A stretch of 64,000 nt of DNA. It comes from Alphaproteobacteria bacterium. GTDB taxonomy: Bacteria; Pseudomonadota; Alphaproteobacteria; UBA828. A program made the translations under genes and the position numbers. The DNA lies in NCBI GenBank assembly GCA_965214705.1, contig OZ243972.1, positions 4,000,001 through 4,064,000 of the forward strand, given 5' to 3'. Below, in pieces: positions 21,396 to 61,721 of the stretch. The notes under the pieces are model-generated. The model ran no database searches and was not told the origin of the DNA. It was given only the letters and a program-made list of their open reading frames with translations. Position 1 is the first letter of the stretch; every line of letters begins with the position of its first letter.

Positions 21396-22024
21396 CTCGC
21401 GCGCTCACGGCGCTCCTCAAGAAATCCCCGTCGTAGTCAAGCCAGATTCCGGTATGGGGTCTGCGTACCGCTTACTCTTCAACAGGTCCGCGCGCATAGT
21501 CACGATGGTCGAGGTGCCATTGGGCGCCATGTTGATGCGTCGGATGAGCTCCTGCCGGGGCGGCTCAACCGCTGCGCTGAGCGCCACGAGGGTGTCGAAG
21601 CCAGGCGCAGCCCTGTAGTCCTCGCTTGCCGCATGGATCGCCGCCGGGTCCGGACCATAGTCTGCCGCCAGCGTTGCGAAGAAGGCACGCTTCTCCACCG
21701 GGCTCATGGCGCGATAGGCATCGGCCATGTCCCGTGCCAGAGCCGTTCCAGATGCTTCGCCCCGCGTGGAAAGCAGCGCGTCACACAGCGCCGCGGGCGA
21801 TCGCGCGCGCAACCTTCCCGTCGACGATCCGCGCCGCAGGAGCTCGCGGCCGGCATCCGCCACGGAATTGATCACCTGGTTCAACCGCGATGACCTCATG
21901 CCTCTTCAAGTTCCTCCTCGGATGGCGACGCTCGGTCTACCGTGTGGGGTGGGTTCGCCAAATCGGCATCGCACCCTGACAGGTGAAGGAATACGTGGGG
22001 GCCGACGGCGGTACGGACAAGGTT

Positions 22025-22066
22025 AAGGGTTGGGCAGGCTCTCTCTCGAGAGCCTGCCCAACCCTT
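22025..22066. repeat. Perfect 19-bp hairpin at the transposase-distal (putative oriIS) end
   Basis: AAGGGTTGGGCAGGCTCTC-TCTC-GAGAGCCTGCCCAACCCTT; also present at 57272-57313. Confidence 0.9.
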
Positions 22067-23439
22067 TTGAACGAAGCCGCGGGCCACGAGAGGCGAAGTT
22101 GAGCTATGTGGAAAGTGCGCTGATGTCAGCGTCAGGCGGCATCCACCGGCAGCAGAGTTGCGCATAAAATCGACGCTCGCGCCGGTCTTTCGGCAGGCAT
22201 GCGGGCGCACGCTGCGAGGACTGAGCGGGGTGTGAGCCGAGGGCTGTCAGCCCGGCTCAAGCGGAGACAGGTTCGGTCGTGCGTCGGCGCTTTGGCGCCG
22301 TTGCGCGGGGCCGAAGCGAGCGGGCGTCTCACGGTTTCCCCCTGTGGGTCGGCGGCAGCGCCGGCGGGCCGCGCGTCGAGCGGGGCTCATGGCGGCGGCG
22401 GATTTCGCGGACGAGGCGCATGACGCCGCCGCAGTGGGGGCAGGCCACGGGCGCGGTGCCGATCTCGGGCTCTTCGTCGGGCTCGGCCTGAGCGCCGTCC
22501 ACGCTTCCCTCGGGGGCGGCGCAGCCGAGGGCGCCGAGAGCCTGGCGTGCTCTCTCCAGCGTGCTGGCGCGGCAGCCGTTGGCGAGGATGCCGAAGTAGC
22601 GAATGCGGTGCATGCCGTCCGGCAGGACGTGCCTCAGGAAGCGGCGGATGAACTCGTCGGCGCTCACGGTGGCGATGCCGTAGCGCGGCTTTCTCTGCCC
22701 CGGCGCCTTGGGCTTTCGGTGGCGGAAGGAGACCGTCTCGCCGTCGAAGGAGACGATGCGGCTGTCGGAGATGGCGATCCTGTGCGTGTAGTGCGAGAGG
22801 TACCGGAAGACCTGCTCAGGCCCGCGGAAGGGCCGCTTGGCGTAGACCACCCAGTCCCTGGCCCGGGCGGCGGCAAGCGTGGCGTGGAACTCGCCGGGAT
22901 TGGCGAGGTGGGCGACGGTGCCGTGGAACTCCAGGTCCCCCCGGCCGTGGGCGCGGGCGAGCTCCTCGAGGAAGAGGCGGCGGAACAGGCTGCCGAGGAC
23001 CTTGACGGGGGCGAGGAAGGTGGTGCTCCCCGTCTTCCACTCGCCACTGTCTACGTCGAAGCCCGCGTTGGGCACGACCACGTGCAGGTGCGGGTGGAAG
23101 CGGAGCTTCTGATCCCAGGTATGGAGGACCGCGGTGCCGCCGATGCGCATGCCGCCGTGGCGGGGATCGGCGGCGATGGTGCGCAGGGTCTCGGCGACGG
23201 CCCGGAAGAGGATGTCGAACACCACCCTGCGGTTGCAGAAGGCAATGGCGGCAACCTCCTTGGGCAGGGTGAAGACCACATGGAAGTAGGGCACCGGCAG
23301 GATGTCCCCGGCGCGCTCCTCGCTCCAGAGGTTGGCGGCGAGACCCTGGCAGGTGGGGCAGTGGCGGTTGCGGCAGGAGTTCTTATGAGCTCTCTCCGCA
23401 AGGCCCGGCTTCATCTACGTCAATGGCATTCGCAATCTC

Positions 23440-23726: not shown

Positions 23727-24923
23727 TCAGGAGACGATGGCGCCCTCAGGCACCAGTCCTTGGGTGGCATAGCGCCACAGCGCGATCAGCAGCTTGCGCG
23801 CGACCCCCACGATCGCCCGCTTCCTCGCTCGCCGGTCCCTCCCGCCACCGGCATCCCTGGCGACGTAGGCGTGGAACCACTTCGTGATCGCGCTTTCCGG
23901 TTGCAGCTTCAGCCAGCGCCAAGCCATCTGGATCATGTGCTTCCTGACATGCGAGGGGCCGGCCTTGCTGATGCCAAGATCGTGGTCGACATCTCCGCTC
24001 GCCCACGGCACCGACGTCAACCCGGCCCAGCTGCCCAACTCCCGGCGATTGCGGAAGTCCCGATAGAACACCTCGCCAGCCAGCAGTGTGGCGTCATTGA
24101 GGCCGATGCCATGGATGCGCGTAAGCGCCGCGATCATCGCCGTCCCGTCACGATTGGTCGCGTCCTGGGCTTTCCGGCCAGCCTTCAGCAGGGCCCTCTT
24201 CTCGGCCTCGATCATCTCGATATGCTCCTCAACCAGGCGAAGCATCCCCACCGCCCTCTCAATCTCTGCCCGCGCACGCGGCGGCAACGGCGCCCCATAG
24301 CCCGTCCGCGCGGTCGCGAGGCGTTCGAGGAAGTCCGGCTTGCGCGGCGCCAGATCGAAGATGCCGTGCAACTGCAAGAGCCCTTTGATCCGGTTGTTGA
24401 CGCGGGTACGCTCGCTGATCAGCGTGTCCCTCTCGCGCAGCAGGCGCTTGGCATCCTCCTGGTCCACATCGGGCACGCGCACCCAGGACATGGCCTCCGA
24501 ATCGCCTTGGTCCCATGCCTTCAGAGCCCGAACCATCCTCCTCGCGTCGATACGGTCGGTCTTTTTCTTCTTGGCGCGCCGGTTCACCCGCAGGCTCGCC
24601 GGATCGTTCATGAAGATATCGATCTCCGCGTCACGGCGCTCGATATCGCGGGCAAGCCAGAACCCCTCGTAGCCCGCCTCGTAGGTCAGCATCACCCGAG
24701 GACGGGCGCCGAGCTCCCTCGCCACCCGTTCCCGCACCGACCCGACGAGATCCAACAGTCCCGCCGTGTCGGCAGCAGCCAGTGTGTGGATGCTGATGCT
24801 GCCACCCGAGGCATCCGGGCAATGCACGCCAACGATCCACGATTTGAGGCTGATCTCCACCGCGACATAAATCGTGCTACTACTTGCGCCTGTCAGCGCG
24901 GTCGTGTCTGGACCATCCGACAT
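23727..24923 (-). CDS. IS110-family recombinase (IS1111 subgroup)
   Basis: YVAVEIS, YEAGYEGFWL, KTDRIDA, GLTSVPWASG, ISKAG, ARKL. Confidence 0.92.
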   Translation of the reverse strand: MSDGPDTTALTGASSSTIYVAVEISLKSWIVGVHCPDASGGSISIHTLAAADTAGLLDLVGSVRERVARELGARPRVMLTYEAGYEGFWLARDIERRDAEIDIFMNDPASLRVNRRAKKKKTDRIDARRMVRALKAWDQGDSEAMSWVRVPDVDQEDAKRLLRERDTLISERTRVNNRIKGLLQLHGIFDLAPRKPDFLERLATARTGYGAPLPPRARAEIERAVGMLRLVEEHIEMIEAEKRALLKAGRKAQDATNRDGTAMIAALTRIHGIGLNDATLLAGEVFYRDFRNRRELGSWAGLTSVPWASGDVDHDLGISKAGPSHVRKHMIQMAWRWLKLQPESAITKWFHAYVARDAGGGRDRRARKRAIVGVARKLLIALWRYATQGLVPEGAIVS

Positions 24924-25845
24924 CCGTCCACTCCGTTGTTGACGATTCCGCTCGGAGAGAAGGTGCTGGCCTTCTCTCCGAGCTTGTCTAACCGCCAGAA
25001 TCGATTCGGTGCCACCGTGCTCATGGTATCTGAAGAGCGGAGTGCGCCAGGCGAACTGGTGCGAGTGCAGTTGGTGAAAGTCCAACAGGAAGGAGAAGGT
25101 GAGCCACCACTTCCACCCCGAGTCATGGGCCGTCGCTCGCGAGGGCGAGGGTCAAGCGTTGACAGGGGCGCGTGTGGGCGGGGCTATTGAGCACCGAAAG
25201 AAACATCATCCGGGATGCCGAGGCTCTTTCGTTGGCCGAAGGTCGCATCTGGCCCACCGATATGGCGAGGGGGGTCTGAATCCCGCGGTGTCAGAGAACC
25301 CACGCACGTACGTACGCACTGCACCGGGACCTGGGAGGTCTCCATGTCATCCCGCTGAGTCGTGGCGGGAACGCTGAGGAAAGGAGGAGTCCGTAACCGA
25401 AGATGAACGACATGGAGAAATCAGACTCGGCCATAGTGTGTGCTGGGCAGCGCCCAGATCAGGTGGGTTCAAGTCCCACTGGCGCTCGGGTAAGGGGCGC
25501 CATATCCAAAAGTGGGGGTAATTCCTCACTGGCCGGAGTGAGCCGATAAGCGAAACTCTAAACGGGCACGAAGCCGGAAACGGCGGAGACAGCCAAGGGA
25601 GGAGCTAAGTTGGTCCACTGTCGAAAGACAACCGGAAGGCAGGGTGTCCACCGCGAGGTGGAATCTGAAGGGCTTGCGGAGAAGTACCGGGCCGTAATCG
25701 AGGGGGCCACCCCATGATGAATCGGTCGGCCAAAGACGGGGCAAGGTCGAGCCGGCACTATGGCGGCGAAGGCGTTCTTACCCACCCGTCGCACCAAGGT
25801 GTTTGCGAGCGGCACGGTACGGAAGATCTGGACGTGACCCCAGGA

Positions 25846-27532
25846 GGGTGTGATTCTCGTATGGCGATATGCCAGTCGTGATGGCGCTAAAGGATATGGG
25901 CTGGTTCATTTTGGTCAAGCAGCGAGTGCCAGGACTTCGGTTGGGCTGATGTTGTCGTTAGCTGGTCCGGATCGGGCGTCCATGAGCGCATCCCATGCCC
26001 GGTCGAAGAGGCCGGATTTGATCAGGGCGCGGAAGGTCAGAACCGCCTGCCCGCCGTCGATCCGCCAGCGCATGCCCGAGCGTTTCAAGCGCTGCGCGAC
26101 GAGGGTCTTGCAGGCCGCCTCGACCACACCCGAGCCGATGGCGATGCCCTCTTCCTTCAGGGCGTGGTAGCGCATCCGATGGCGGTGCTTTCGGAAGAAG
26201 GCCAGTTCGCGCTCGATCTCGGCCGGGTCCCCCTTTGCCCTGTCCAGGAGGTAGCGCAGTGCCCGGATCACCTTGTCGACGCCGCGGGGGTCGTGGCGCA
26301 GGATTTCGCGGTGCTTCTCGAACCAGTGGCGCGCCACCGCATGGTCAGAGGCCACGCGGAGATGCTCGCAAGCGTGCCAGAAGTCGATGACCTCGGTCTC
26401 GGGCGAGAGGCTTTCGAGGAAGGTCCAGTTGTCGGCGGCCCCGTCGGCGACGGCGCCGATCCTGATCTTCGGGCTCACACGGCGGATATGGGCGACCTCG
26501 CTTGCAAGTTGCGCTTTCAGCGCGGCCTTGCCGCTCTCGGGCATACGGCCGAGATAGAGGGTCTTCAGCCGTTGGCCCTCGGCGTCGTGGAAGGAGACCG
26601 TGCCGCAAGAGGCCTCGCGCCAGCACGCCTCGGCACGGCCGTCCTCGCCGGCCCGCAGCGCCACCATGACGCCGTCAAGGGAGACGGACGCGGTGACCGC
26701 ATCGGGCGGTATGCCCTGGGTTTCACGGATGCTGGCCAGCGTCTCCGGGGCGACGCTCTCCCAGTGCTCATGCATGCTCAGGGCCAGGCGCTGCAGCGTG
26801 CTCACCGACGGCGTCATTCCGCCCATTTTCGCGAAGAACTCCTCCGCTTCACGCGGCGTACAGTGGCCCATCATCATCAGCCCGAGCTGCGCCGCCGGCC
26901 GCGTCAGGTAGTCGTCGATGAGGCCCAGGCTCTCGTCCACCGGCACCAGCGACGTGCTGCTCGCGCCGCTGCGATAGCGCGCACGCCGATAGGTCACGGG
27001 ACCGAGCGTCGTCATGATCGTCTTCGGCGTCGCCGCCACCCGGACCCAGCTCTGTCCGTCGCGCTCGATCCGGCTCGCACCGTCGTCGCGGCTCTCGGCG
27101 AAGGCCCCAAGGAGCTTGCAACCCAAGCCGTTCATGGCGTCCCGCAGCCCCGTCTCAACCGTTTCGAACGTCTCGGCAGACGGGTCAGACCCAGCCTGTT
27201 CGCGACAGAACTCCACCACCTGGGCGACCGCTTCGGCGACTTCGGCAGGCAGGCCCAAAAGGTCGATGGACGAGGCGATGAGAGACTGCGACACTGGCAT
27301 GGGAACGCTCCTGATGTTGGGTCTGATGTTGGGTTGTCGGCGCGGCATCCTACCGCATCTCGCGGTGCGGAGCGTTCCCACCCACCACTGCTGGATGCCG
27401 CCGTTGTGACAAAATCCGGCCCTGCACCGGCCGATTGTCACGAAAACCCGATTCTGGCTGCCTACGGCCACCCGCCAATCGCGCTAAATCAATGACTTAC
27501 GATCGCCATGCCAGACCTCCAGACCTACACCC
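25846..27532 (-). mobile_element. ISKra4-family element inside the inner intron RNA
   Basis: Ends GGGTGT / ACACCC; 8-bp TSD CCCCAGGA (25838-25845, 27533-27540). Confidence 0.88.
25915..27300 (-). CDS. ISKra4-family transposase
   Basis: SLDG, ADGAADNW, DFWHACEHL, IGSGVVEAACK..RLKRSGMRW. Confidence 0.88.
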   Translation of the reverse strand: MPVSQSLIASSIDLLGLPAEVAEAVAQVVEFCREQAGSDPSAETFETVETGLRDAMNGLGCKLLGAFAESRDDGASRIERDGQSWVRVAATPKTIMTTLGPVTYRRARYRSGASSTSLVPVDESLGLIDDYLTRPAAQLGLMMMGHCTPREAEEFFAKMGGMTPSVSTLQRLALSMHEHWESVAPETLASIRETQGIPPDAVTASVSLDGVMVALRAGEDGRAEACWREASCGTVSFHDAEGQRLKTLYLGRMPESGKAALKAQLASEVAHIRRVSPKIRIGAVADGAADNWTFLESLSPETEVIDFWHACEHLRVASDHAVARHWFEKHREILRHDPRGVDKVIRALRYLLDRAKGDPAEIERELAFFRKHRHRMRYHALKEEGIAIGSGVVEAACKTLVAQRLKRSGMRWRIDGGQAVLTFRALIKSGLFDRAWDALMDARSGPANDNISPTEVLALAA

Positions 27533-27611
27533 CCCCAGGAGGGCTCGCCGCGTTCCCGGGTGGCACCGGGATAACGGACCCTATAAGCCGAAAGGCGAAA
27601 TGGGAAGGGGA

Positions 27612-27794
27612 TTATATATCTGACTGAATGACGGGCTGATCCATGATGCCGGATGGCTCCGCCTCAGCCTCCCCGTCTTCGGCCTGTGGCTCGTGCCGCA
27701 ACAGCGCGCGGGCCACCATTTCAGGAGTCGCCCCCTCGTAGCGGGGGTTGAGCGTCTCCAACTCGTGTTTCAGCTTTTCAGCCTTCTCGGTCAT
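27612..27794 (-). CDS. 60-aa conserved IS1595-associated microprotein
   Basis: PRYEGATPEMVARALLR resembles the ORF at 58686-58847; stop codon lies inside the IR. Confidence 0.65.
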   Translation of the reverse strand: MTEKAEKLKHELETLNPRYEGATPEMVARALLRHEPQAEDGEAEAEPSGIMDQPVIQSDI

Positions 27795-28210
27795 TGCGTT
27801 GCCTTCATTCCCGGTGGCGAGGGGGGGGCGATACTATATTGCATATTATCGCCCCCTCTGTCACCATGCCCGCGCTCACATCTGAGAAGCCCGCTTCGTC
27901 GGGCTACTCGCTGAATACAACAGCCCTTGTGTGGCTCGGGGTCGCTCCCCGGACCGGCGAATAGGCGGGACCTTCCAACGCTTCTTGGATGTGAGCAAAC
28001 GGCCCGGCACCCCGTCGGGCCGCGAGCAGAGGGCAGGCTACGCTATAAGAGATCGCCCCATCGGCTGGGGACGGGTGGTGCCCCGTCCCCAGCCTACCAC
28101 GGGGCTTGGTGTTGGCTTCGGAGAGCGCACCAAACCGCACGGCAATGACAGTCTATTACCGATCCCAAGCCGTACAAGAGGTGCCTCTCCGACGATTTTA
28201 GGAGAGCGCT

Positions 28211-28582
28211 ATGCACACTTGGTATGCCTCTTTGGCGGCAGCGGCCATGATGCTCGCCGCTGTCGCCACCACTCACGCGCGGGCAGATATCGTATGCCCA
28301 AAGGGCAGCCTGCACGACTTCGTTCCAAACGCGGTCTGGCAACAGTACGTCGCCAACAGCCGGGACTATATCGCTCGGATGCTCCGAAGGATGGAGGATG
28401 TCCGAGACCGCCAGATGGTCATGGAGCGGATGTTCGAGGAGGGCTTCATCGCCGCCACGGACATCGTGAACGCTCACTGCGTCTCGCGGCCGATTGGCGA
28501 GCCATGGAGCACAGAGATCAAGCAGAAGCGGCGCGAGGCTTGGTGCCGAGAATGGGGTGATGCCTATTTCTGCAAGAGGTGA
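28211..28582 (+). CDS. Hypothetical secreted protein (passenger)
   Basis: RBS AGGAG, Ala-rich signal peptide ending THARA, four Cys; overlaps the next gene (GTGA). Confidence 0.65.
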   Translation: MHTWYASLAAAAMMLAAVATTHARADIVCPKGSLHDFVPNAVWQQYVANSRDYIARMLRRMEDVRDRQMVMERMFEEGFIAATDIVNAHCVSRPIGEPWSTEIKQKRREAWCREWGDAYFCKR

Positions 28583-29361
28583 TCGCAAGAATCACCGTGC
28601 TTCCGATCTACGTCATCAACCTCGACCGCAGGCCGGATCGGCTCGCGGCAATCGCGGCGGACCTGGACCGGCTCGGCCTACCCTTCGAGCGCATCAAGGC
28701 CGTCGACGGCCAAGAGCTACAGGAAGATCTGGGCCCGGAGCCGCTTCTGAACCTGGCTGAGAAAGCGTGCGTGCTGAGCCATGCGAACGCGCTGCGGCAC
28801 CTCCTCCATTCAGAACACCCAGCGGCCGTGATCCTCGAGGATGACGCTGAGTTCGGAGAGGGGCTTGCGCAACTCTCCCGCTCGATCGACTGGTGGCCGG
28901 AAGGCACCTTGCTGCTGAAGCTGGACCAACCGTTCCCGAGAAAGCGGCTCGTCGGCCTGCCGTGTGGACGAACGCCGGACGGCCGCAACCTGAGAGAGAA
29001 CATCCGGTGGAGCTCAGGGTCGGTGGGCTACATCGCTACTCGCGCCGCTGCCGGCGAGATACTGGTGTCCCTCGAGACAGACAGCATCATGCCCTTCGAC
29101 GAACTGATGTTCGACTGCCGCATATCAGACCTAGCGCGCTGGCTCCGTGCAATGCAAGTCCAGCCCGCGCCTGTCCGGCAACGGGACCGCGGGAGACCGG
29201 ATGAATTCCCCTCGGATTTGGAGGACAGCCGCCAGACACCGGAGTCATTGAGTTATCGCCACCGCCGTCGACAGCGGCGCCGATTTCACCGTCGTCTGTA
29301 TCTCTGGATGTTGTGGGCAATCGGCAATGCGAAGAGCATGAAGATCACCTACTGCCCGTAA
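28579..29361 (+). CDS. Glycosyltransferase family 25 (LPS/LOS-type)
   Basis: YVINLDRRPDR, FERIKAVDG, ACVLSH, ILEDDA. Confidence 0.9.
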   Translation: MIARITVLPIYVINLDRRPDRLAAIAADLDRLGLPFERIKAVDGQELQEDLGPEPLLNLAEKACVLSHANALRHLLHSEHPAAVILEDDAEFGEGLAQLSRSIDWWPEGTLLLKLDQPFPRKRLVGLPCGRTPDGRNLRENIRWSSGSVGYIATRAAAGEILVSLETDSIMPFDELMFDCRISDLARWLRAMQVQPAPVRQRDRGRPDEFPSDLEDSRQTPESLSYRHRRRQRRRFHRRLYLWMLWAIGNAKSMKITYCP

Positions 29362-29601
29362 TCGCAGATTCAAACTGACCCACTACCCGCGATTGACGAC
29401 TGACCGGGTTTAGGCTATCCGCGGGCTCGTGGCCGTGACGAATCGCGGTGGCCTCGACTGACGAAGCCGGCCCTGGCGGGACCGGCTTCGGAACTGGGGT
29501 CCGGTGTAGACCTACCGAGGCGCACCGAACTGGCTCATCTGAGGTGGAAATCCTAGCGATTCCCGCGAGCCGGTCAAGTGCGCCCTCAAGAAGAGGGCAC
29601 A

Positions 29602-29826
29602 ATGCCGAAGAAATATCCGACCGGCTTCGATCTCAGCAAACGCTCATCCCGTTCTCGCAAATCGCGGAAGCCCGACCAACCTTCGATCAAGTATGGTGAT
29701 GTTGTCCGGCAGCGCCCGAATGGGCTGCCACTGCAAGTCACCGATGTGGAGGGCGATAAGGTCTACTGCGACGGGTTCATTGACCCGTTCGGGGCATCCG
29801 GCCTTGAAGTTGTGATCCGCTTCTAG
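29602..29826 (+). CDS. Small hypothetical protein (YodC/DUF2158-like fold possible)
   Basis: IKYGDVVRQRPNGLPLQVTDVEGDKVYC pattern; RBS AAGAGG. Confidence 0.5.
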   Translation: MPKKYPTGFDLSKRSSRSRKSRKPDQPSIKYGDVVRQRPNGLPLQVTDVEGDKVYCDGFIDPFGASGLEVVIRF

Positions 29827-31044
29827 TGTCCTGTCATTCATCAACTGTCGGATAGAGGCGTTTCAGCTTCACCCGTGCGTCGTCCGTGGTGAACTGCCAG
29901 TTGACGTTGCCCCGGATGCGGTCTCGGGACGCCTGCCAAGCCGCGACCTCGTCGCGCAGGACTTCGAGGGAGGCGATGCGGCGGTTGAGACACTGACGGA
30001 TCATGACGTTGAGCTCGACCTCGGCGACGTTGAGCCAACTGCCGTGCTTGGGCGTGTAGACGAACTCGAAGCGGTCCCACAGCGCCTTGGCCTGGTCCGG
30101 CGGAAATGCCTCGTAGAGGGCGCCGGGGCGGTGGGTGTTCAGGTTGTCCATCACAAGCGTGATCCTCTTGGCGCGGGGGTGGCGCTCGGCGATGTCGTTG
30201 AGGAAGTGCGCCCAGTCGGTTTTGGTTCTGCGCGCCGTCACCTTGGTCATACGCCGCCCGGCCAGGGGTTCGGTCGCCATGAACACGTTGCAGCTTCCGC
30301 AACGTCGGTACTCGTAGTCTTCGCGCGCCGGCCGACCCGGCGCTGCCGGAACCGGTTCGCGTGTCTCGCCGATCAGTTGCCGGGGCGTCTCGTCCATGCA
30401 CACCACCGGAAAGGCTGCATCGTAGGGACGCCGGTAGACGTCGAGAACCTTCTCCATCGCCGCGGCGAAGTCCGCGTTGCCCTGTGGGGGAATCACCCAG
30501 CCGACGCGCCGCCACGGCTTGATTGCGTTTTTTTTAGCACCCGGCGCACCGTCTCGTGCGACACGCTGTCGATGTGGCCGAGTTCCACGATGCGGTCCGC
30601 CAGCAACCGCAGCGACCACTGCGAGTGGCCCTCCGGCGGCTCGGCGCAGCTCAGCGCCACCAAGTGCGCCTCGAACTCGCCGTCGGCCTTGCGCACGTAG
30701 CTGGGACGGCGACCCTGCCGGCCACCGAGCGCCGCCGCCATGCCCGCCTCGACGAAACGCTTCTTGACCCGCTCCACCTTGCGCGCACTGATGCGCAGGA
30801 TCTCCGCAATGGCCTCCCCGTGCGCCCGGTGCTCGTTGAACTCGCCTTCGTCGCAGTTGAGCAGGATCAGCGCGTTGATCACCTTCTGTGACTGATGAGA
30901 GCCCTTGCGCGTGATCTCTGCGAGCTCGTCCCGCTCCTCCTTCTCCAAAGTCACCACGTAACGCTTCATGCCAGCCTCCTCGCCGTCGTGCGACGACGAG
31001 AAAGCTATCATGAAATGGGCGACATATCGTATGTGACATGACAC
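29826..31044 (-). mobile_element. IS630-family element inside the IS1595
   Basis: IR GTGTCCTGTCA / TGACATGACAC; TA duplication within CTAG. Confidence 0.92.
29834..30969 (-). CDS. IS630 transposase, programmed -1 frameshift
   Basis: orfA MKRYVVTL...VSHETVRRVLKK; A8 run at 30528-30535; orfB CMDETP, MDNLNTH, TPKHGSWLNVAE. Confidence 0.9.
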
Positions 31045-32020
31045 TAGGACCGCGCGCCTGAGTCCAGTCCGTTGTCGGCGATCAGGTCACGGTAGCACAG
31101 GCGCTTGCCGATCATCCCGGCGACCACCGCGCCCATCTGGTCGATGGTGTCGCTCTCGCGCACGTTGTGGCGGCCCGCGAACTCTTGGACGTACCGTTGC
31201 AGGTGCTTCGCGCTCAGCTTGTGGTAGACGCCCTTGTGCGCCCGCTTGAGCATGGACCAAAACGACTCCATGCCATTGACGTGGGCTTGGTTGCGGACAT
31301 ACTCGCCAGCACTGTGGTTCACGGCCTCGCGGTCGAACTCGCCTTCCAGCGGGTTGTAGGCTGCGCTTTCGTCCGTATAGACCTTCGCGCCCGGCTCGGT
31401 CTTCTCTGCGACGAAGCCCGCGACATGCGGGGCATCCGTGTTCTGAATGTGCCGCACCGCGACGCGGTTGGTGGCGCGGTCCTTGGTGCCGACCACGGCC
31501 TCTTTGCCGACTGCACCGCGCCCGCTCAGCGTCTTCCGCTTGGCCTTCGACATGTTCGCGCGCCGCCCACCCACGTATGTCTCATCGGCCTCGACCGGCC
31601 CCGAGAATAGCGATTCGCTCTCGGCGGACCAAGCCTCCCTGATCCGATGCAGCATGAACCAAGCGGTCTTCTGCGTCACCCGCAGGTCGCGATGCAGCTT
31701 CATCGACGACACGCCCTTGAGGCTGGTCATCTCCAGGTAGATGGCGAAAACCCACTTGCGCAGCGGAACCTTGGAGCGCTCCAAGGCCGTGCCGATCCGC
31801 ACCGAGAAGGCCCGCTTGCAGGCCGGGCAGTAGTAGGGCAGGCCGGACGTGGCGGACGCTTCCGCAGTCTCGGTGCATCCGCAGCGCGGGCAATGGCGAC
31901 CATCCGGCCAGACCAGAGACTCGAACCACGTGGCGGCGGAAGCCTCGTCCGGGAACATCTCGGTCAACTCGATCAGGCTGATTCCCTCGCGGTGCGCTTT
32001 GCCCGGTGCCTTCTTCGCCA
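31044..32020 (-). CDS. IS1595-family transposase
   Basis: CPRC/CPAC zinc ribbon, AWFMLHRIR, VEADETYVGG, YTDE, HVNGMESFW. Confidence 0.94.
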
Positions 32021-32249
32021 TCGCCCTAACCCCTTGTGCTAACGTCTTGATCTGAATATAGGGGTTCACGACCGTTCAGTCAGGTATATAATCCCCAATG
32101 GGAAAGGATGCGCGGCGAGCAATCGGACAACCGAATAGTACCTGAAGCCCGGCGAAAGCCGGGTGACCGCGCGAGCGGCGGCCGTGTGGGCCGGGGAAGG
32201 CGGTTGGCAGAGGTGGTCGGCGAGAGACAGCGATGAGTGAGTAAGGACC

Positions 32250-33560
32250 ATGACGCGGACAAGTTCCTTGAGCGAAAGACCCGGACATCATGGCCCGAGG
32301 AGACTCATCGACTGGATCAACCCGGCGGGTGACAGGAAGGTCCACTCACTGGTGGACAAGGTGTACAAGCGGAAGAACCTTGAGGTGGCCTGGGAAAAGG
32401 TGAAGCGCAACCGGGGTGCCGGTGGCGTGGACGGAGAGGATTTAGCGGCGTTCGAGGCATCGCTGGATGCAAATCTCGATCGCCTGCACCGGGAGTTGCG
32501 GGACGGTGAGTATCACCCGCAGCCGGTTCTCCAATGCCTGATCCCCAAGGCGGGCCAGCCGGGGAAGTTCCGCCCGCTCGGCATCCCGACAATCTACGAC
32601 CGGGTGTGCCAGCAGGCGCTGCTGAACCGGCTGGAACCGATCTTCGAGCCGGTGTTCGACGATGCCAACTACGGGTACCGGCAAGGAAGGTCTGCCCATG
32701 GAGCGTTACGCAAGATATGGAGGGAACTGGACGAGGGCAACGAGTGGGTTCTCGATGCGGATTTGAAAGACTTTTTCGGGTCCGTGGACCACGAAAAGCT
32801 CCTCGAACTCGTCAACCAGCGAGTCTCGGATGGCCGGGTATTAGGTCTGCTCAGGCAGATGCTCACGGCCGGGGTGGTGGCCGACGGTAAGAGGCTGCCG
32901 ACCGAACAGGGCACTCCGCAGGGCGGCATCGTTTCACCGCTGCTCAGCAATATCTTGCTGACCCCGTTCGATTGGGAAATGCGTCGTCGCGGCTATCGAC
33001 TAACGCGATACGCCGATGATTGGCTGATCACGTGCCGCACACGCGGGGAAGCCCGCGCAGCACTGGAGACGGCCAGGCGGATTCTGGCAAAGCTGGGTGT
33101 GTCCCTCAACGCCGGGAAGACCCGCATTGTCCATGTCAGGCACGGGTTTGAGTTCCTCGGCTACAAGATCAAGCAGGGCGAGCGGCCTCTCCGGCTGTCG
33201 TCCTCCAAGATCAAGAGCGGGGTTCGCGGGGGAGCGCGCTACGCGGTTCCGCGTGAGAAATCCATCCGGCACTTCAAGGACCAGATTCGCCAGCGTACCC
33301 GGCGCAAGGCTCCTGTCAGCACGCAGGAGCTGATTGACGAGATCAACCCGATCATTCGGGGATGGGGCCAATACTATTGCAAGGCCCACGTCCGCGGGCT
33401 CTTCCACCAGCTTGACGGCTGGATCGTGCGGCGGCTCTGGTCGCATCGTCGCAAGCGCTGGCGCAACGCTGGCTGGAAACAGTTGCCGGAGCGCAAGCTG
33501 ATCGACGAATACGGGCTTGTTCGCCTGATCTCACTGGTTCCGTCCTTGAACCTTCGTTGA
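32250..33560 (+). CDS. ltrA: Group II intron reverse transcriptase/maturase (inner intron), intact, no endonuclease domain
   Basis: RPLGIPTIYDRVCQ, GTPQGGIVSPLLSN, RYADD, FLGY, maturase X domain (NPIIRGWGQYY). Confidence 0.95.
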   Translation: MTRTSSLSERPGHHGPRRLIDWINPAGDRKVHSLVDKVYKRKNLEVAWEKVKRNRGAGGVDGEDLAAFEASLDANLDRLHRELRDGEYHPQPVLQCLIPKAGQPGKFRPLGIPTIYDRVCQQALLNRLEPIFEPVFDDANYGYRQGRSAHGALRKIWRELDEGNEWVLDADLKDFFGSVDHEKLLELVNQRVSDGRVLGLLRQMLTAGVVADGKRLPTEQGTPQGGIVSPLLSNILLTPFDWEMRRRGYRLTRYADDWLITCRTRGEARAALETARRILAKLGVSLNAGKTRIVHVRHGFEFLGYKIKQGERPLRLSSSKIKSGVRGGARYAVPREKSIRHFKDQIRQRTRRKAPVSTQELIDEINPIIRGWGQYYCKAHVRGLFHQLDGWIVRRLWSHRRKRWRNAGWKQLPERKLIDEYGLVRLISLVPSLNLR

Positions 33561-57234: not shown

Positions 57235-57492
57235 TCAGTCGAAGCGCGGGAGGCTCTGAGCGGGGAAGGTTAAGGGTTGGGCAGGCTCTCTCTCGAGAGC
57301 CTGCCCAACCCTTTTGAACGAAGCCGCGGGCCACGAGAGGCGAAGTTGAGCTATGTGGAAAGTGCGCTGATGTCAGCGTCAGGCGGCATCCACCGGCAGC
57401 AGAGTTGCGCATAAAATGGGGATTATATATGTGACTTGATTTTGGGGGCGTAAAGTTGTATATTTCTGCGTGGATTCAATGGGGTAGGCGAC

Positions 57493-58473
57493 ATGCAGAA
57501 AGCACCTGGCAAGGCGTTTCGAGAAGGCATCGCGTTAATCGAGATTATGGACTTATTCCCCACGGAACAGGCCGCAACGAAGTGGTTTGAGACGCACGTT
57601 TGGCCGAACGGTCGGCACTGTGGACACTGCGGGTCCGTCGAGACTAAGAAAGTTCCGAACGCAAAACCGATGCCCTACTGGTGCAGGGACTGTAAGTCGT
57701 ACTTCAGTGTCCGGACCGGCACGGCCTTGGAGCGCTCCAAGGTACCGCTGCGCAAGTGGGCTATCGCGATCTACATTTGCGTAACCAGCCTGAAGAGCGT
57801 GAGCAGCATGAAACTGCACCGCGACCTGAAGGTCACGCAAAAGACGGCCTGGTTCATGCTGCATCGGCTTCGCGAGGCGTGGGCCGAAGAGATGGGTCAG
57901 GACTTCACCGGCCCGGTCGAGGCGGACGAAACCTATGTCGGCGGGAAACGTAAGAACATGTCGAACGCGAAGCGGAAGGAGCTCGCCGGGACCGGGCGCG
58001 GCGCTACGGGCAAAGAGGCTGTGGTTGGCACCAAGGATCGCGAGACCAACAAGGTCGCAGTCCGGCACGTCGACCGCACTGCTGCGCCGCACTTGGCAGG
58101 CTTCGTCGCCCACACAACCAAGTTCGGCTCCAAGGTCTATACCGACGAGTCGAAGGCCTACAACGCGCTAAACGATTGGTATGACCATGAAAGTGTCAAC
58201 CACTCCGCTGGCGAGTACGTGCGGGGCATGGCCCATACCAACGGCATGGAATCGTTCTGGGCCATGCTGAAGCGTGCCCACGGCGGCACATTCCACAAGA
58301 TCAGCCCGAAGCATCTCCAGCGCTACGCTCGGGAGTTTGCGGGCAAGCACAATTTCCGAGGCGAAGATACGGCGGCGCAGATGGCCGCAGTCGCAGCCGG
58401 CCTGGTCGGCCGTCGGCTCATGTATCGCGATCTCACGGCCGAAAACGGCCTGTCCTCAGGGGCAAGGTCATGA
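57493..58473 (+). CDS. IS1595 transposase
   Basis: CGHC/CRDC, VEADETYVGG, YTDE, HTNGMESFW. Confidence 0.94.
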   Translation: MQKAPGKAFREGIALIEIMDLFPTEQAATKWFETHVWPNGRHCGHCGSVETKKVPNAKPMPYWCRDCKSYFSVRTGTALERSKVPLRKWAIAIYICVTSLKSVSSMKLHRDLKVTQKTAWFMLHRLREAWAEEMGQDFTGPVEADETYVGGKRKNMSNAKRKELAGTGRGATGKEAVVGTKDRETNKVAVRHVDRTAAPHLAGFVAHTTKFGSKVYTDESKAYNALNDWYDHESVNHSAGEYVRGMAHTNGMESFWAMLKRAHGGTFHKISPKHLQRYAREFAGKHNFRGEDTAAQMAAVAAGLVGRRLMYRDLTAENGLSSGARS

Positions 58474-58685
58474 ACCAGAGGGAAGCAAAATAGCTCCTAC
58501 GACGATCCTGACTGCTGTTGATGACGCTGCAGGCAACATCGGCGAAGCCTGGCTTCGGATCATCCGCGACTATCTGGACGAGAGGGCACCAATAGGGACG
58601 CAGACATCTATGAGATGGAGCACACTCAAAACTGCTCCGTTCACCAATAGTCGTCCCGGCAAAGCCGGAGAAAACGAGGTTTACG

Positions 58686-58847
58686 ATGGCCAAGGGGACT
58701 CTTCCCAAGCCGAATAAGATCGGCGATCCGCACTTCAAGGGCGCGACGCCCGCGACACTGGCTCGCGCTCTTATGCGCCGTGTGCGTCCGATAAAGCCGA
58801 CAGGAAAATCGACGACTCAACGGGGACGCATCAAGTCACATATATAA
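58686..58847 (+). CDS. 53-aa IS1595-associated microprotein (absent from the ORF track)
   Basis: RBS GAGG; MAKGTLPKPNKIGDPHFKGATPATLARALMRR...SHI*; TAA inside the IR. Confidence 0.65.
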   Translation: MAKGTLPKPNKIGDPHFKGATPATLARALMRRVRPIKPTGKSTTQRGRIKSHI

Positions 58848-60071
58848 TCCCCCATAAAATCGACGCTCGCGCCGGTCTTTCGGCAGGCATGCGGGCGCAC
58901 GCTGCGAGGACTGAGCGGGGTGTGAGCCGAGGGCTGTCAGCCCGGCTCAAGCGGAGACAGGTTCGGTCGTGCGTCGGCGCTTTGGCGCCGTTGCGCGGGG
59001 CCGAAGCGAGCGGCCGTCTCACGGTTTCCCCCTGTGGGTCGGCGGCAGCGCCGGCGGGCCGCGCGTCGAGCGGGGCTCATGGCGGCGGCGGATTTCGCGG
59101 ACGAGGCGCATGACGCCGCCGCAGTGGGGGCAGGCCACGGGCGCGGTGCCGATCTCGGGCTCTTCGTCGGGCTCGGCCTGAGCGCCGTCCACGCTTCCCT
59201 CGGGGGCGGCGCAGCCGAGGGCGCCGAGAGCCTGGCGTGCTCTCTCCAGCGTGCTGGCGCGGCAGCCGTTGGCGAGGATGCCGAAGTAGCGAATGCGGTG
59301 CATGCCGTCCGGCAGGACGTGCCTCAGGAAGCGGCGGATGAACTCGTCGGCGCTCACGGTGGCGATGCCGTAGCGCGGCTTTCTCTGCCCCGGCGCCTTG
59401 GGCTTTCGGTGGCGGAAGGAGACCGTCTCGCCGTCGAAGGAGACGATGCGGCTGTCGGAGATGGCGATCCTGTGCGTGTAGTGCGAGAGGTACCGGAAGA
59501 CCTGCTCAGGCCCGCGGAAGGGCCGCTTGGCGTAGACCACCCAGTCCCTGGCCCGGGCGGCGGCAAGCGTGGCGTGGAACTCGCCGGGATTGGCGAGGTG
59601 GGCGAGGGTGCCGTGGAACTCCAGGTCCCCCCGGCCGTGGGCGCGGGCGAGCTCCTTGAGGAAGAGGCGGCGGAACAGGCTGCCGAGGACCTTGACGGGG
59701 GCGAGGAAGGTGGTGCTCCCCGTCTTCCACTCGCCACTGTCTACGTCGAAGCCCGCGTTGGGCACGACCACGTGCAGGTGCGGGTGGAAGCGGAGCTTCT
59801 GATCCCAGGTATGGAGGACCGCGGTGCCGCCGATGCGCATGCCGCCGTGGCGGGGATCGGCGGCGATGGTGCGCAGGGTCTCGGCGACGGCCCGGAAGAG
59901 GATGTCGAACACCACCCTGCGGTTGCAGAAGGCAATGGCGGCAACCTCCTTGGGCAGGGTGAAGACCACATGGAAGTAGGGCACCGGCAGGATGTCCCCG
60001 GCGCGCTCCTCGCTCCAGAGGTTGGCGGCGAGACCCTGGCAGGTGGGGCAGTGGCGGTTGCGGCAGGAGTT

Positions 60072-61721
60072 CTTATGAGCTCTCTCCGCAAGGCCCGGCT
60101 TCATCTACGTCAATGGCATTCGCAATCTCTCCACTCGAATCCGCGGCCGATGTCCAGGCAGAACGTCGTTTCCACGCAGCGATCCGCCACGCTGCTCAGC
60201 TCTTATCCGGTTCGGAACTCCGGCGCTTGCCGGCTCCGTGACCCCAATACCGCATCCAAGCGGTGGTGACGTTCCGGGAGGCGGGACCCATCTGTAGAAC
60301 GGTGCCAAGCGGCGACCCAACTCTTGCCCGGTCACACGCCTTGCCCGGCATCCTCCGCGGCCGCGTCCGACCACGTCGGAACCTCCTGTATTTTCCCGTT
60401 CGTTCGGCCGGTGCCCTCAGGAGACGATGGCGCCCTCAGGCACCAGTCCTTGGGTGGCATAGCGCCACAGCGCGATCAGCAGCTTGCGCGCGACCCCCAC
60501 GATCGCCCGCTTCCTCGCTCGCCGGTCCCTCCCGCCACCGGCATCCCTGGCGACGTAGGCGTGGAACCACTTCGTGATCGCGCTTTCCGGTTGCAGCTTC
60601 AGCCAGCGCCAAGCCATCTGGATCATGTGCTTCCTGACATGCGAGGGGCCGGCCTTGCTGATGCCAAGATCGTGGTCGACATCTCCGCTCGCCCACGGCA
60701 CCGACGTCAACCCGGCCCAGCTGCCCAACTCCCGGCGATTGCGGAAGTCCCGATAGAACACCTCGCCAGCCAGCAGTGTGGCGTCATTGAGGCCGATGCC
60801 ATGGATGCGCGTAAGCGCCGCGATCATCGCCGTCCCGTCACGATTGGTCGCGTCCTGGGCTTTCCGGCCAGCCTTCAGCAGGGCCCTCTTCTCGGCCTCG
60901 ATCATCTCGATATGCTCCTCAACCAGGCGAAGCATCCCCACCGCCCTCTCAATCTCTGCCCGCGCACGCGGCGGCAACGGCGCCCCATAGCCCGTCCGCG
61001 CGGTCGCGAGGCGTTCGAGGAAGTCCGGCTTGCGCGGCGCCAGATCGAAGATGCCGTGCAACTGCAAGAGCCCTTTGATCCGGTTGTTGACGCGGGTACG
61101 CTCGCTGATCAGCGTGTCCCTCTCGCGCAGCAGGCGCTTGGCATCCTCCTGGTCCACATCGGGCACGCGCACCCAGGACATGGCCTCCGAATCGCCTTGG
61201 TCCCATGCCTTCAGAGCCCGAACCATCCTCCTCGCGTCGATACGGTCGGTCTTTTTCTTCTTGGCGCGCCGGTTCACCCGCAGGCTCGCCGGATCGTTCA
61301 TGAAGATATCGATCTCCGCGTCACGGCGCTCGATATCGCGGGCAAGCCAGAACCCCTCGTAGCCCGCCTCGTAGGTCAGCATCACCCGAGGACGGGCGCC
61401 GAGCTCCCTCGCCACCCGTTCCCGCACCGACCCGACGAGATCCAACAGTCCCGCCGTGTCGGCAGCAGCCAGTGTGTGGATGCTGATGCTGCCACCCGAG
61501 GCATCCGGGCAATGCACGCCAACGATCCACGATTTGAGGCTGATCTCCACCGCGACATAAATCGTGCTACTACTTGCGCCTGTCAGCGCGGTCGTGTCTG
61601 GACCATCCGACATCCGTCCACTCCGTTGTTGACGATTCCGCTCGGAGAGAAGGTGCTGGCCTTCTCTCCGAGCTTGTCTAACCGCCAGAATCGATTCGGT
61701 GCCACCGTGCTCATGGTATCT
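60072..61721 (-). mobile_element. IS1111-subgroup element, copy B
   Basis: Same sequence and same insertion base as 23382-25031. Confidence 0.9.
60417..61613 (-). CDS. IS110-family recombinase (IS1111 subgroup), copy B
   Basis: Identical translation to 23727-24923. Confidence 0.92.
   Translation of the reverse strand: MSDGPDTTALTGASSSTIYVAVEISLKSWIVGVHCPDASGGSISIHTLAAADTAGLLDLVGSVRERVARELGARPRVMLTYEAGYEGFWLARDIERRDAEIDIFMNDPASLRVNRRAKKKKTDRIDARRMVRALKAWDQGDSEAMSWVRVPDVDQEDAKRLLRERDTLISERTRVNNRIKGLLQLHGIFDLAPRKPDFLERLATARTGYGAPLPPRARAEIERAVGMLRLVEEHIEMIEAEKRALLKAGRKAQDATNRDGTAMIAALTRIHGIGLNDATLLAGEVFYRDFRNRRELGSWAGLTSVPWASGDVDHDLGISKAGPSHVRKHMIQMAWRWLKLQPESAITKWFHAYVARDAGGGRDRRARKRAIVGVARKLLIALWRYATQGLVPEGAIVS

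Follow-up and report, generated by a model that had tools for sequence, protein, structure and literature searches.

A conserved microprotein gene near the right terminus of insertion sequences in one IS1595-family clade

In insertion sequences of the IS1595 family, transposition is attributed to a single gene, and the forms that carry cargo blur the boundary between insertion sequence and transposon; to our knowledge, transposition in the family has hardly been studied at the bench. Members with passenger genes (known as transporter ISs) have been described (Siguier, Gagnevin and Chandler 2009, cited in PMC3129680). The elements considered here, from a 64,000-nucleotide stretch of an alphaproteobacterial genome (the window), are like transporter ISs in having a zinc ribbon and an ISXO2-like DDE transposase, terminal inverted repeats, 8-bp target duplications, and passenger genes that lie downstream of the transposase and inside the repeats. 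In contrast to the one-gene description of the family, one clade of these elements has a second conserved backbone gene, located between the cargo and the right repeat. Cargo-carrying IS1595 elements are thus already known; the new part is an IS clade with an undescribed accessory microprotein. Among literature titles and the beginnings of abstracts we found nothing on a conserved second gene or ORF in IS1595 elements (an "orf2" entry in ISfinder or TnPedia is possible) and nothing relevant under the subgroup names ISNwi1, ISPna2 and others.

Small regulators encoded by insertion sequences are exemplified by InsA of IS1 and OrfA of IS911, which are N-terminal, DNA-binding parts of the transposase frame (with a zinc finger or HTH), are encoded upstream, and are joined by frameshifting. 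Like them, the microprotein is a small product of the element itself, is encoded in the same orientation as the transposase, and is presumed to act on transposition, but its gene lies downstream, at the far end, and its product exhibits neither similarity to the transposase (hhalign probability 0.2%) nor a recognizable DNA-binding domain. The AT-hook is a peptide motif that binds the minor groove. Two of the sequence types described below, C and D, have RPRGRP just ahead of the conserved core, and the element ends are AT-rich, whereas both proteins of the window and 147 of their best 150 relatives are without the RGRP core. Nor does the microprotein look like a ribbon-helix-helix repressor, which has a strand and two helices: its AF2 model, of moderate confidence, consists of a helix at residues 24–32 and a disordered, non-conserved tail. 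Finally, toxin-antitoxin pairs have been described as integral to the transposition module of the Tn3 family (PMC7157771). These, too, are non-transposase genes at a fixed place in the backbone, outside the variable cargo, but they are pairs of genes from known families, whereas the present case is a single gene of 45–70 codons that has no family match and no conserved toxin-like or antitoxin-like partner beside it.

Two IS1595-family elements and their right-end ORFs

The initial annotation of the window had reported two IS1595 elements, each with different cargo and each ending in a small ORF co-oriented with the transposase. We confirmed both elements and both ORFs (60 and 53 aa). Their features are as follows, beginning with element 1.

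27607..32096, minus strand: element 1, a complete IS1595-family transporter IS of 4490 bp, with terminal repeats and target-site duplication (TSD)
27607..27628: right inverted repeat of element 1, GGGGATTATATATCTGACTGAA on the plus strand
27612..27794, minus strand: microprotein gene, 60 aa, type A core LNPRYEGATPEMVARALLR, family HMM E=1.8e-25
28211..29361, plus strand: ancestral cargo, comprising a 123-aa ORF (28211–28582) and a family 25 glycosyltransferase (GT25) gene (28579–29361)
29827..31043, minus strand: nested IS630-family insertion (DDE_3, overlapping frames of 183 and 401 aa, PF13358 2.2e-32)
31044..32021, minus strand: IS1595-family transposase, 325 aa, PF12762 5.9e-40, PF12760 3e-6
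32075..32096: left inverted repeat of element 1, reverse complement GGGGATTATATACCTGACTGAA

57418..58852, plus strand: element 2, a complete, minimal IS1595-family element of 1435 bp, with only a transposase and a microprotein gene
57493..58473, plus strand: IS1595-family transposase, 326 aa, PF12762 8.5e-39, PF12760 7.1e-6
58686..58847, plus strand: microprotein gene, 53 aa, core GDPHFKGATPATLARALMRR, family HMM E=2.7e-16
58830..58852: right inverted repeat of element 2

Element 1 is flanked by an 8-bp target duplication, AATGGGAA, at 27599–27606 and 32097–32104, and its terminal repeats, GGGGATTATATA[T/C]CTGACTGAA, match at 21 of 22 positions. Read along the minus strand, the order is left repeat, transposase, nested IS630, cargo, microprotein gene and right repeat. 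As the start of the transposase we took the ATG that matches the MAKKAPGK of its relatives (the longest ORF extends to 32069); the protein scores over the curated Pfam cut-off for PF12762 and, with 27.5 bits against a cut-off of 25.4, for PF12760. The small ORF is on the minus strand, like its transposase, a correction to the initial annotation, and has an AAGG motif 8 nt before its ATG. The ORF is preceded, 28–62 bp upstream, by a perfect 10-bp palindrome at 27824–27856, GGGGGCGATA ... TATCGCCCCC, whose arms are separated by 13 nt of AT-rich sequence; from its sequence it could be an operator or a hairpin.

The DNA between the transposase and the small ORF of element 1 had been taken to be cargo, a view that holds for 28211–29361 and not for 29827–31043. 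The former segment contains the GT25 gene, whose product matches PF01755 at 1.6e-16, and the 123-aa ORF, both on the strand opposite to that of the transposase and the microprotein gene; element 1 thus has non-transposition genes inside its repeats, as a transporter IS does. The latter segment, directly 3' of the transposase stop, is an IS630-family insertion. Given its absence from a second copy of the element in the same genome (L034), it is, by this comparison, a later addition, outside ancestral element 1. The second copy (G000:C1:2114240-2122870, the element itself being given as 2114258-2122858) has the TSD TAAATTAG, shares the cargo, and is 99.9–100% identical to element 1 over shared segments. 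It has received two 2.66-kb insertions in inverted orientation, both of which encode a Y2 transposase of the IS91 type and have a 346-aa ORF; one breaks the GT25 gene and the other the IS1595 transposase. Its microprotein ORF is intact and identical to that of element 1.

The region around element 1 is a dense nest of mobile elements. On one flank is a group II intron reverse transcriptase/maturase (RVT_1 and GIIM, 32250–33560) and on the other a 518-aa UPF0236-type ORF (25915–27471), which we take to be ISKra4-like; an IS110-family transposase is located at 23727–25085.

Element 2 has perfect terminal repeats (23/23, GGGGATTATATATGTGACTTGAT) and an 8-bp TSD, CATAAAAT, at 57410–57417 and 58853–58860. 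The cargo attributed to it proved to be a 212-bp spacer with zero cargo genes. Its transposase is 68% identical to that of element 1, scores over the curated cut-off for PF12762 and, with 26.3 bits against 25.4, for PF12760, and has relatives numbering at least 7988 at E<=1e-30. The ATG of the microprotein ORF is preceded, at 7 nt, by a GAGG motif, and the product of this ORF resembles, by eye, two of the cluster representatives listed in our family search, P0018 (first 42 residues shared) and P0059 (similar N-terminal half).

Element 2 is nested within one copy (57261–59152) of a repeated IS91-like element, and its uninterrupted target is found at 22163–22170 in the other copy (22014–22462); the Y2/IS91-type transposases of these two copies are at 22329–23414 and 59019–60104. 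The empty-site joint was present in contigs of three DNA runs, in which 57409 was joined to 58853 with 1443 bp (1435+8) skipped, and in the same data a 1435-bp contig covers 57418–58852. The sole RNA run contained 0.07 of the sampled words; its contigs, which by their nature cannot show expression, were those of a relative (84 differences in 852 bases), covered the transposase gene only, and did not extend over 58480–58860. The one sigma-70-like site found in a promoter scan precedes the transposase gene of element 2, within the left end of that element; neither microprotein ORF had such a site upstream. A plasmid search returned a single 75-bp match for element 2 DNA and none for the 60-aa protein.

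The small ORF as a protein-coding gene

In both elements the stop codon of the small ORF is, as had been noticed, the TAA of the terminal repeat itself, being part of the terminal ...ATATAATCCCC: the right ends read GGGGA-TTA-TATAT in element 1 (plus strand, within 27607–27628) and ATATATAATCCCC at 58840–58852 in element 2. An ORF that overlaps or abuts a terminal repeat might be incidental in GC-rich sequence, with its conservation reflecting cis-acting DNA of the right end (subterminal transposase-binding sites) or RNA, and spurious ORFs are indeed common at high GC, 8 kb of this sequence containing 78 ORFs of 40 aa or more. The pattern of substitution argues strongly against this. The two microproteins of the window align with 12 of 32 identities (E=7e-7 as a single comparison), and 8 of the 10 identical core residues are encoded by different codons. 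Among 17 distinct core DNA sequences from the window's genome, its genus, and alphaproteobacterial and unclassified MAGs, diversity at the three codon positions was 0.221, 0.214 and 0.553, the third being about 2.5 times more variable than the first two, and the invariant N, P, Y, G, A, T and P residues were each encoded by several synonymous codons. The pN/pS ratio of these cores was 0.32 in the frame of the ORF, as compared with 1.48 and 1.39 in the other two frames, in a set gathered by protein similarity, so that amino-acid conservation is partly built in; sampling of this kind cannot create an excess at third positions, however, and the codon-position pattern therefore stands. All 19 ORFs that we examined start with ATG, 15 have a Shine-Dalgarno-like motif 6–18 nt upstream, and 11 encode an N-terminal Met-Thr. 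Moreover, the peptide core stays conserved in elements in which the gene is inverted and moved beside the transposase (see below). Because of the codon-position bias, the in-frame pN/pS and the synonymous codons at invariant residues, an explanation in terms of DNA alone fails, and we consider it very improbable. We conclude from the comparison of sequences that the small ORF is a real protein-coding gene under purifying selection. The proposal of an unannotated accessory gene was thus correct in that the gene is genuine, as opposed to a case of DNA-level conservation without codon bias, and could not be upheld in general as regards "unannotated", since gene callers had predicted the ORF and relatives of it, two of which are in NCBI.

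A HMMER search with a 10-sequence profile of 1.84 billion cluster representatives (50% identity clusters) identified 282 representatives at E<=1e-3, of which 10 were at E<=1e-10 and nearly all were 40–90 aa long; a word-based search returned 6 relatives of 46–66 aa. The best 150 representatives have a median length of 57 aa and comprise 130 with a core that we designate type A, [ILV]xNPRYxGATPExVARALLR, 17 with the type B core, LDPKxxLxGATPExLAxALFRR, and 3 variants. The peptide of element 2 looks, by eye, intermediate between these two types. Type C reads RPRGRPPKPIPKIEASPERVARAIFS, and in types C and D the core is immediately preceded by a textbook AT-hook, RPRGRPPKP; an AT-hook-like motif (with the RGRP core) occurs in 3 of the best 150 representatives and in neither protein of the window. 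The proteins have in common a variable, often basic and proline-rich N-terminus, a near-invariant core of 18 residues, and a variable, charged tail, which in 28 of the 130 type-A proteins ends in a QSSI-like sequence that is translated repeat. The AF2 model, based on 72 sequences, has a single helix (residues 24–32) in the second half of the core, with pLDDT values of 78–84 in the core and 57–66 elsewhere (mean 68), which is moderate confidence.

The microprotein matched no family of Pfam or NCBIfam at E<=10 and nothing in PADLOC; its best E values were 0.049 among PHROGs and 0.095 among PDB sequences, a protein Atlas search gave no usable match, and domain searches found no HTH, ribbon-helix-helix or zinc motif. 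We also considered the possibility that it is a piece of the transposase, which we rejected on the basis of the hhalign comparison with the transposase profile cited above, and no fusion to a transposase was present among the 10 longer proteins returned, which were read-throughs or singleton fusions to proteins of the cargo. The core does appear as a C-terminal extension of unrelated cargo proteins, namely P0280 and P0281 (Macro domain) and P0284 (Methylase_S), and P0278 (N6_Mtase) matched the family profile with a core that the motif pattern did not locate. The clusters of all four have a single member each, and these are probably read-through or gene-calling fusions.

Linkage to IS1595 and position in the element backbone

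A six-frame HMM scan of the window's own genome gave 8 matches at E<=1.2e-9 (the next best being at E=0.37), and the motif was found to be linked to IS1595 throughout: all 8 matches adjoin IS1595 features, 7 of them within repeat-bounded elements and the eighth, a degenerate copy, at a distance of 2.6 kb from a solo repeat. In the degenerate copy (L033) the solo repeat, of the right-end type, is at G000:C1:870735 and the ORF, with core YKGATPEMVGRALLRH and no start codon seen, is at 873353-873508; its appearance suggests that a later insertion has split a right end. The same genome has 11 transposases that are at least 50% identical to that of element 2, and 7 of these (L001–L005, L007 and L008) are accompanied by a member of the family, while no microprotein ORF was detectable with three others of the same subgroup (L009–L011). 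L006 has a right-end ORF of 57 aa, 15 bp before the repeat, that aligns weakly to the family (hhalign probability 10.8%); it is a possible positional analogue, which we do not count as a family member.

When we searched species-representative genomes with a 13-row alignment, at least 11 loci were confirmed among 589 candidate stretches. A co-oriented transposase was located 0.6–4 kb upstream in 8 of the 11 loci listed; of the remaining three, one has rearranged transposase fragments and two have no transposase. A transposase match was found at 12 of 27 loci from the order, for which flanks of only 1.5 kb were available, and at 10 of 15 loci that were enlarged. More distant relatives of the motif occur without a transposase in the stretch retrieved. 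The gene is present in 13 of 20 genomes of the genus, in 17 of 48 other genomes of the order, and in 5 of 400 other genomes sampled across the class (17 candidates scored per genome), a patchy spread of the kind expected for a mobile-element gene. Taken together, these genomic associations show tight linkage of the microprotein gene to a single IS1595-family clade, found in alphaproteobacterial genomes and in unclassified MAGs.

The claim that the ORF ends inside the repeat applies to part of the family. We scored the element terminus as TATATAATCCCC, with at most 2 mismatches, in 20 distinct type-A ORFs and found it 5–45 bp after the stop, or inside the frame, in 16. In 10 of the 20 the stop is the repeat's TAA, whereas about 5–6 end 21–40 bp before the element tip, and in one (L069) the stop is missing and the frame continues through the repeat. 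In the elements with type B microproteins, moreover, the gene is inverted and overlaps the 3' end of the transposase gene: the core lies on the other strand, 13–16 bp past the transposase stop, and the tail is antisense to the transposase C-terminus. Because the gene lies inverted directly behind the transposase in this clade, an overlap with the right repeat, though common, is not a requirement. The sharing of the TAA is probably a by-product of packing a gene against a cis-acting end, outside the mechanism.

The content between the transposase and the microprotein gene varies, as had been noted, from the glycosyltransferase of element 1 to methylases or ORFs without a Pfam family elsewhere. 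DNA methylases are the cargo in 3 of 8 elements from MAGs, the rest having ORFs that lack a Pfam family. In these three elements (L067, L068 and L069) the transposase and cargo ORFs point the same way as the microprotein gene, which comes last, and the first cargo ORF starts at the final base of the transposase match, an arrangement consistent with a single operon. The methyltransferase is an N6_N4_Mtase or an 860-aa N6_Mtase protein and is followed on its 3' side, in L068 and L069, by a 174–180-aa ORF without a Pfam family; the three may be mobile restriction-modification units. As judged by gene order, the microprotein gene is a backbone component, in the layout left repeat, transposase, optional cargo, microprotein gene, right repeat.

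In type-C elements an XRE-type HTH gene is interposed between the microprotein gene and the right repeat. A type-C transporter IS of about 4.4 kb exists in two copies, at G000:C1:1157684-1162122 and G000:C3:119890-124318 (around L007, L008 and L032), whose listed ORFs are identical; both carry a lipoprotein-like gene, and there is an 8-nt overlap between the microprotein stop and the start of the XRE-type HTH gene. A weak relic of type D, DTPENVARELVTTPPKNEDDWDYLK (E=0.93; G000:C1:211916-212077), was found at a distance of about 1 kb from a repeat core resembling that of IS1595, GGGGATCATATA (213032).

Microprotein type follows the transposase. In a maximum-likelihood tree of 29 transposase rows, the 8 rows with type B form one clade (support 100/97), to which the transposase of element 2 is sister, and the 4 rows with type C form another (support 100/99), while type A needs two changes. 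Over the tree, the five type labels require 4 changes, the minimum possible, as compared with a mean of 14.9 when labels were shuffled (0 of 200 shuffles were as low), for rows that were chosen because their microprotein type was known and among which kin share labels. The tree supports the view that the type of microprotein is co-inherited with the transposase. The gene is not universal in the family, however. Distant IS1595 copies in the window's genome (about 30% identity, 1.0–1.2 kb, 5–7 copies) have no microprotein ORF, and since they are multi-copy the IS1595 family can transpose without it.

Possible roles of the microprotein

Our best guess, which is tentative, is that the microprotein works in trans, as a small partner or regulator of transposition. 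Such a peptide, mostly disordered and with a single invariant linear motif, would act on the element's own transposition machinery, perhaps by binding the transposase or the transpososome at the element ends, as a regulator or as an assembly cofactor. The invariance of the motif, the paucity of structure, the co-divergence with the transposase and the survival of the gene when cargo is exchanged make such action the most likely of the readings considered. The proposed role is connected to the transposase and to DNA through gene position and co-inheritance only. A prediction of the complex between the element 2 transposase (64-row alignment) and the microprotein (79-row alignment) scored 0.00 in both runs, a result that counts neither way.

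The gene could instead be a conserved hitch-hiker, encoding a real microprotein whose job is unrelated to transposition (stabilizing the element, acting against defence or a silencer, or engaging a host protein) and residing at a right end that tolerates genes. This would fit with the multi-copy relatives that lack the gene, with the retrieval of motif relatives that have no transposase nearby, and with the occasional, always singleton, fusions of the motif to the C-termini of cargo proteins (Macro domain, Methylase_S, N6_Mtase). It would fit, too, with the presence of cargo in 7 of the 8 microprotein-bearing elements of the window's genome, a small and phylogenetically non-independent sample, as if the gene marked transporter-IS lineages and not transposition as such. 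A passenger would not, however, be expected to track the transposase clade with the minimum number of changes while cargo differs between close relatives, nor to be retained with the transposase alone in the minimal 1435-bp element 2, and the microprotein matched no PADLOC defence model and no PHROGs family. We regard a role unrelated to transposition as unlikely. Alternatively, the peptide might be a small DNA-binding regulator that recognizes the AT-rich ATTATATA repeat core or an operator and controls transcription of the transposase or of divergent cargo, with no contact to the transposase. The AT-hook of types C and D, the AT-rich tips of elements in a GC-rich genome, the divergence of the microprotein gene from the cargo in element 1 and in the type-C elements L007 and L008, and the palindrome upstream of the ORF in the single case of element 1 all point in this direction. 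Against it, the AT-hook-like motif is as rare among the best representatives as noted above, recognizable DNA-binding motifs are lacking in a protein modeled as one 9-residue helix, and the core is constant across types whose repeats differ (ATTATATA, CTTATGATC and ACTTATACGCC). DNA binding of this sort is, in our estimation, slightly less likely still.

Returning to a partner or regulator of transposition, the strongest form of the proposal would be that the NPRY-GATPE-ARALLR peptide is a dedicated, trans-acting transposition subunit of one IS1595 clade, and hence the first microprotein cofactor or copy-number governor described for the family. Stated so specifically the proposal is doubtful, but if it were true, a right-end module that works despite DNA separating it from the transposase gene would help to explain the readiness of this clade to become cargo-carrying transporter ISs.

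A second conserved, unnamed backbone gene that co-diverges with the transposase would change how IS1595 elements are annotated, and the right-end ORF marks the boundary of the element better than cargo does. The family adds at least 282 clusters at 50% identity to the bacterial microproteins that lie outside every domain library. Finally, the microprotein is a small and easily testable candidate regulator or cofactor; were it to prove dispensable for transposition, it would still be an unusually conserved 18-residue motif in search of a partner.
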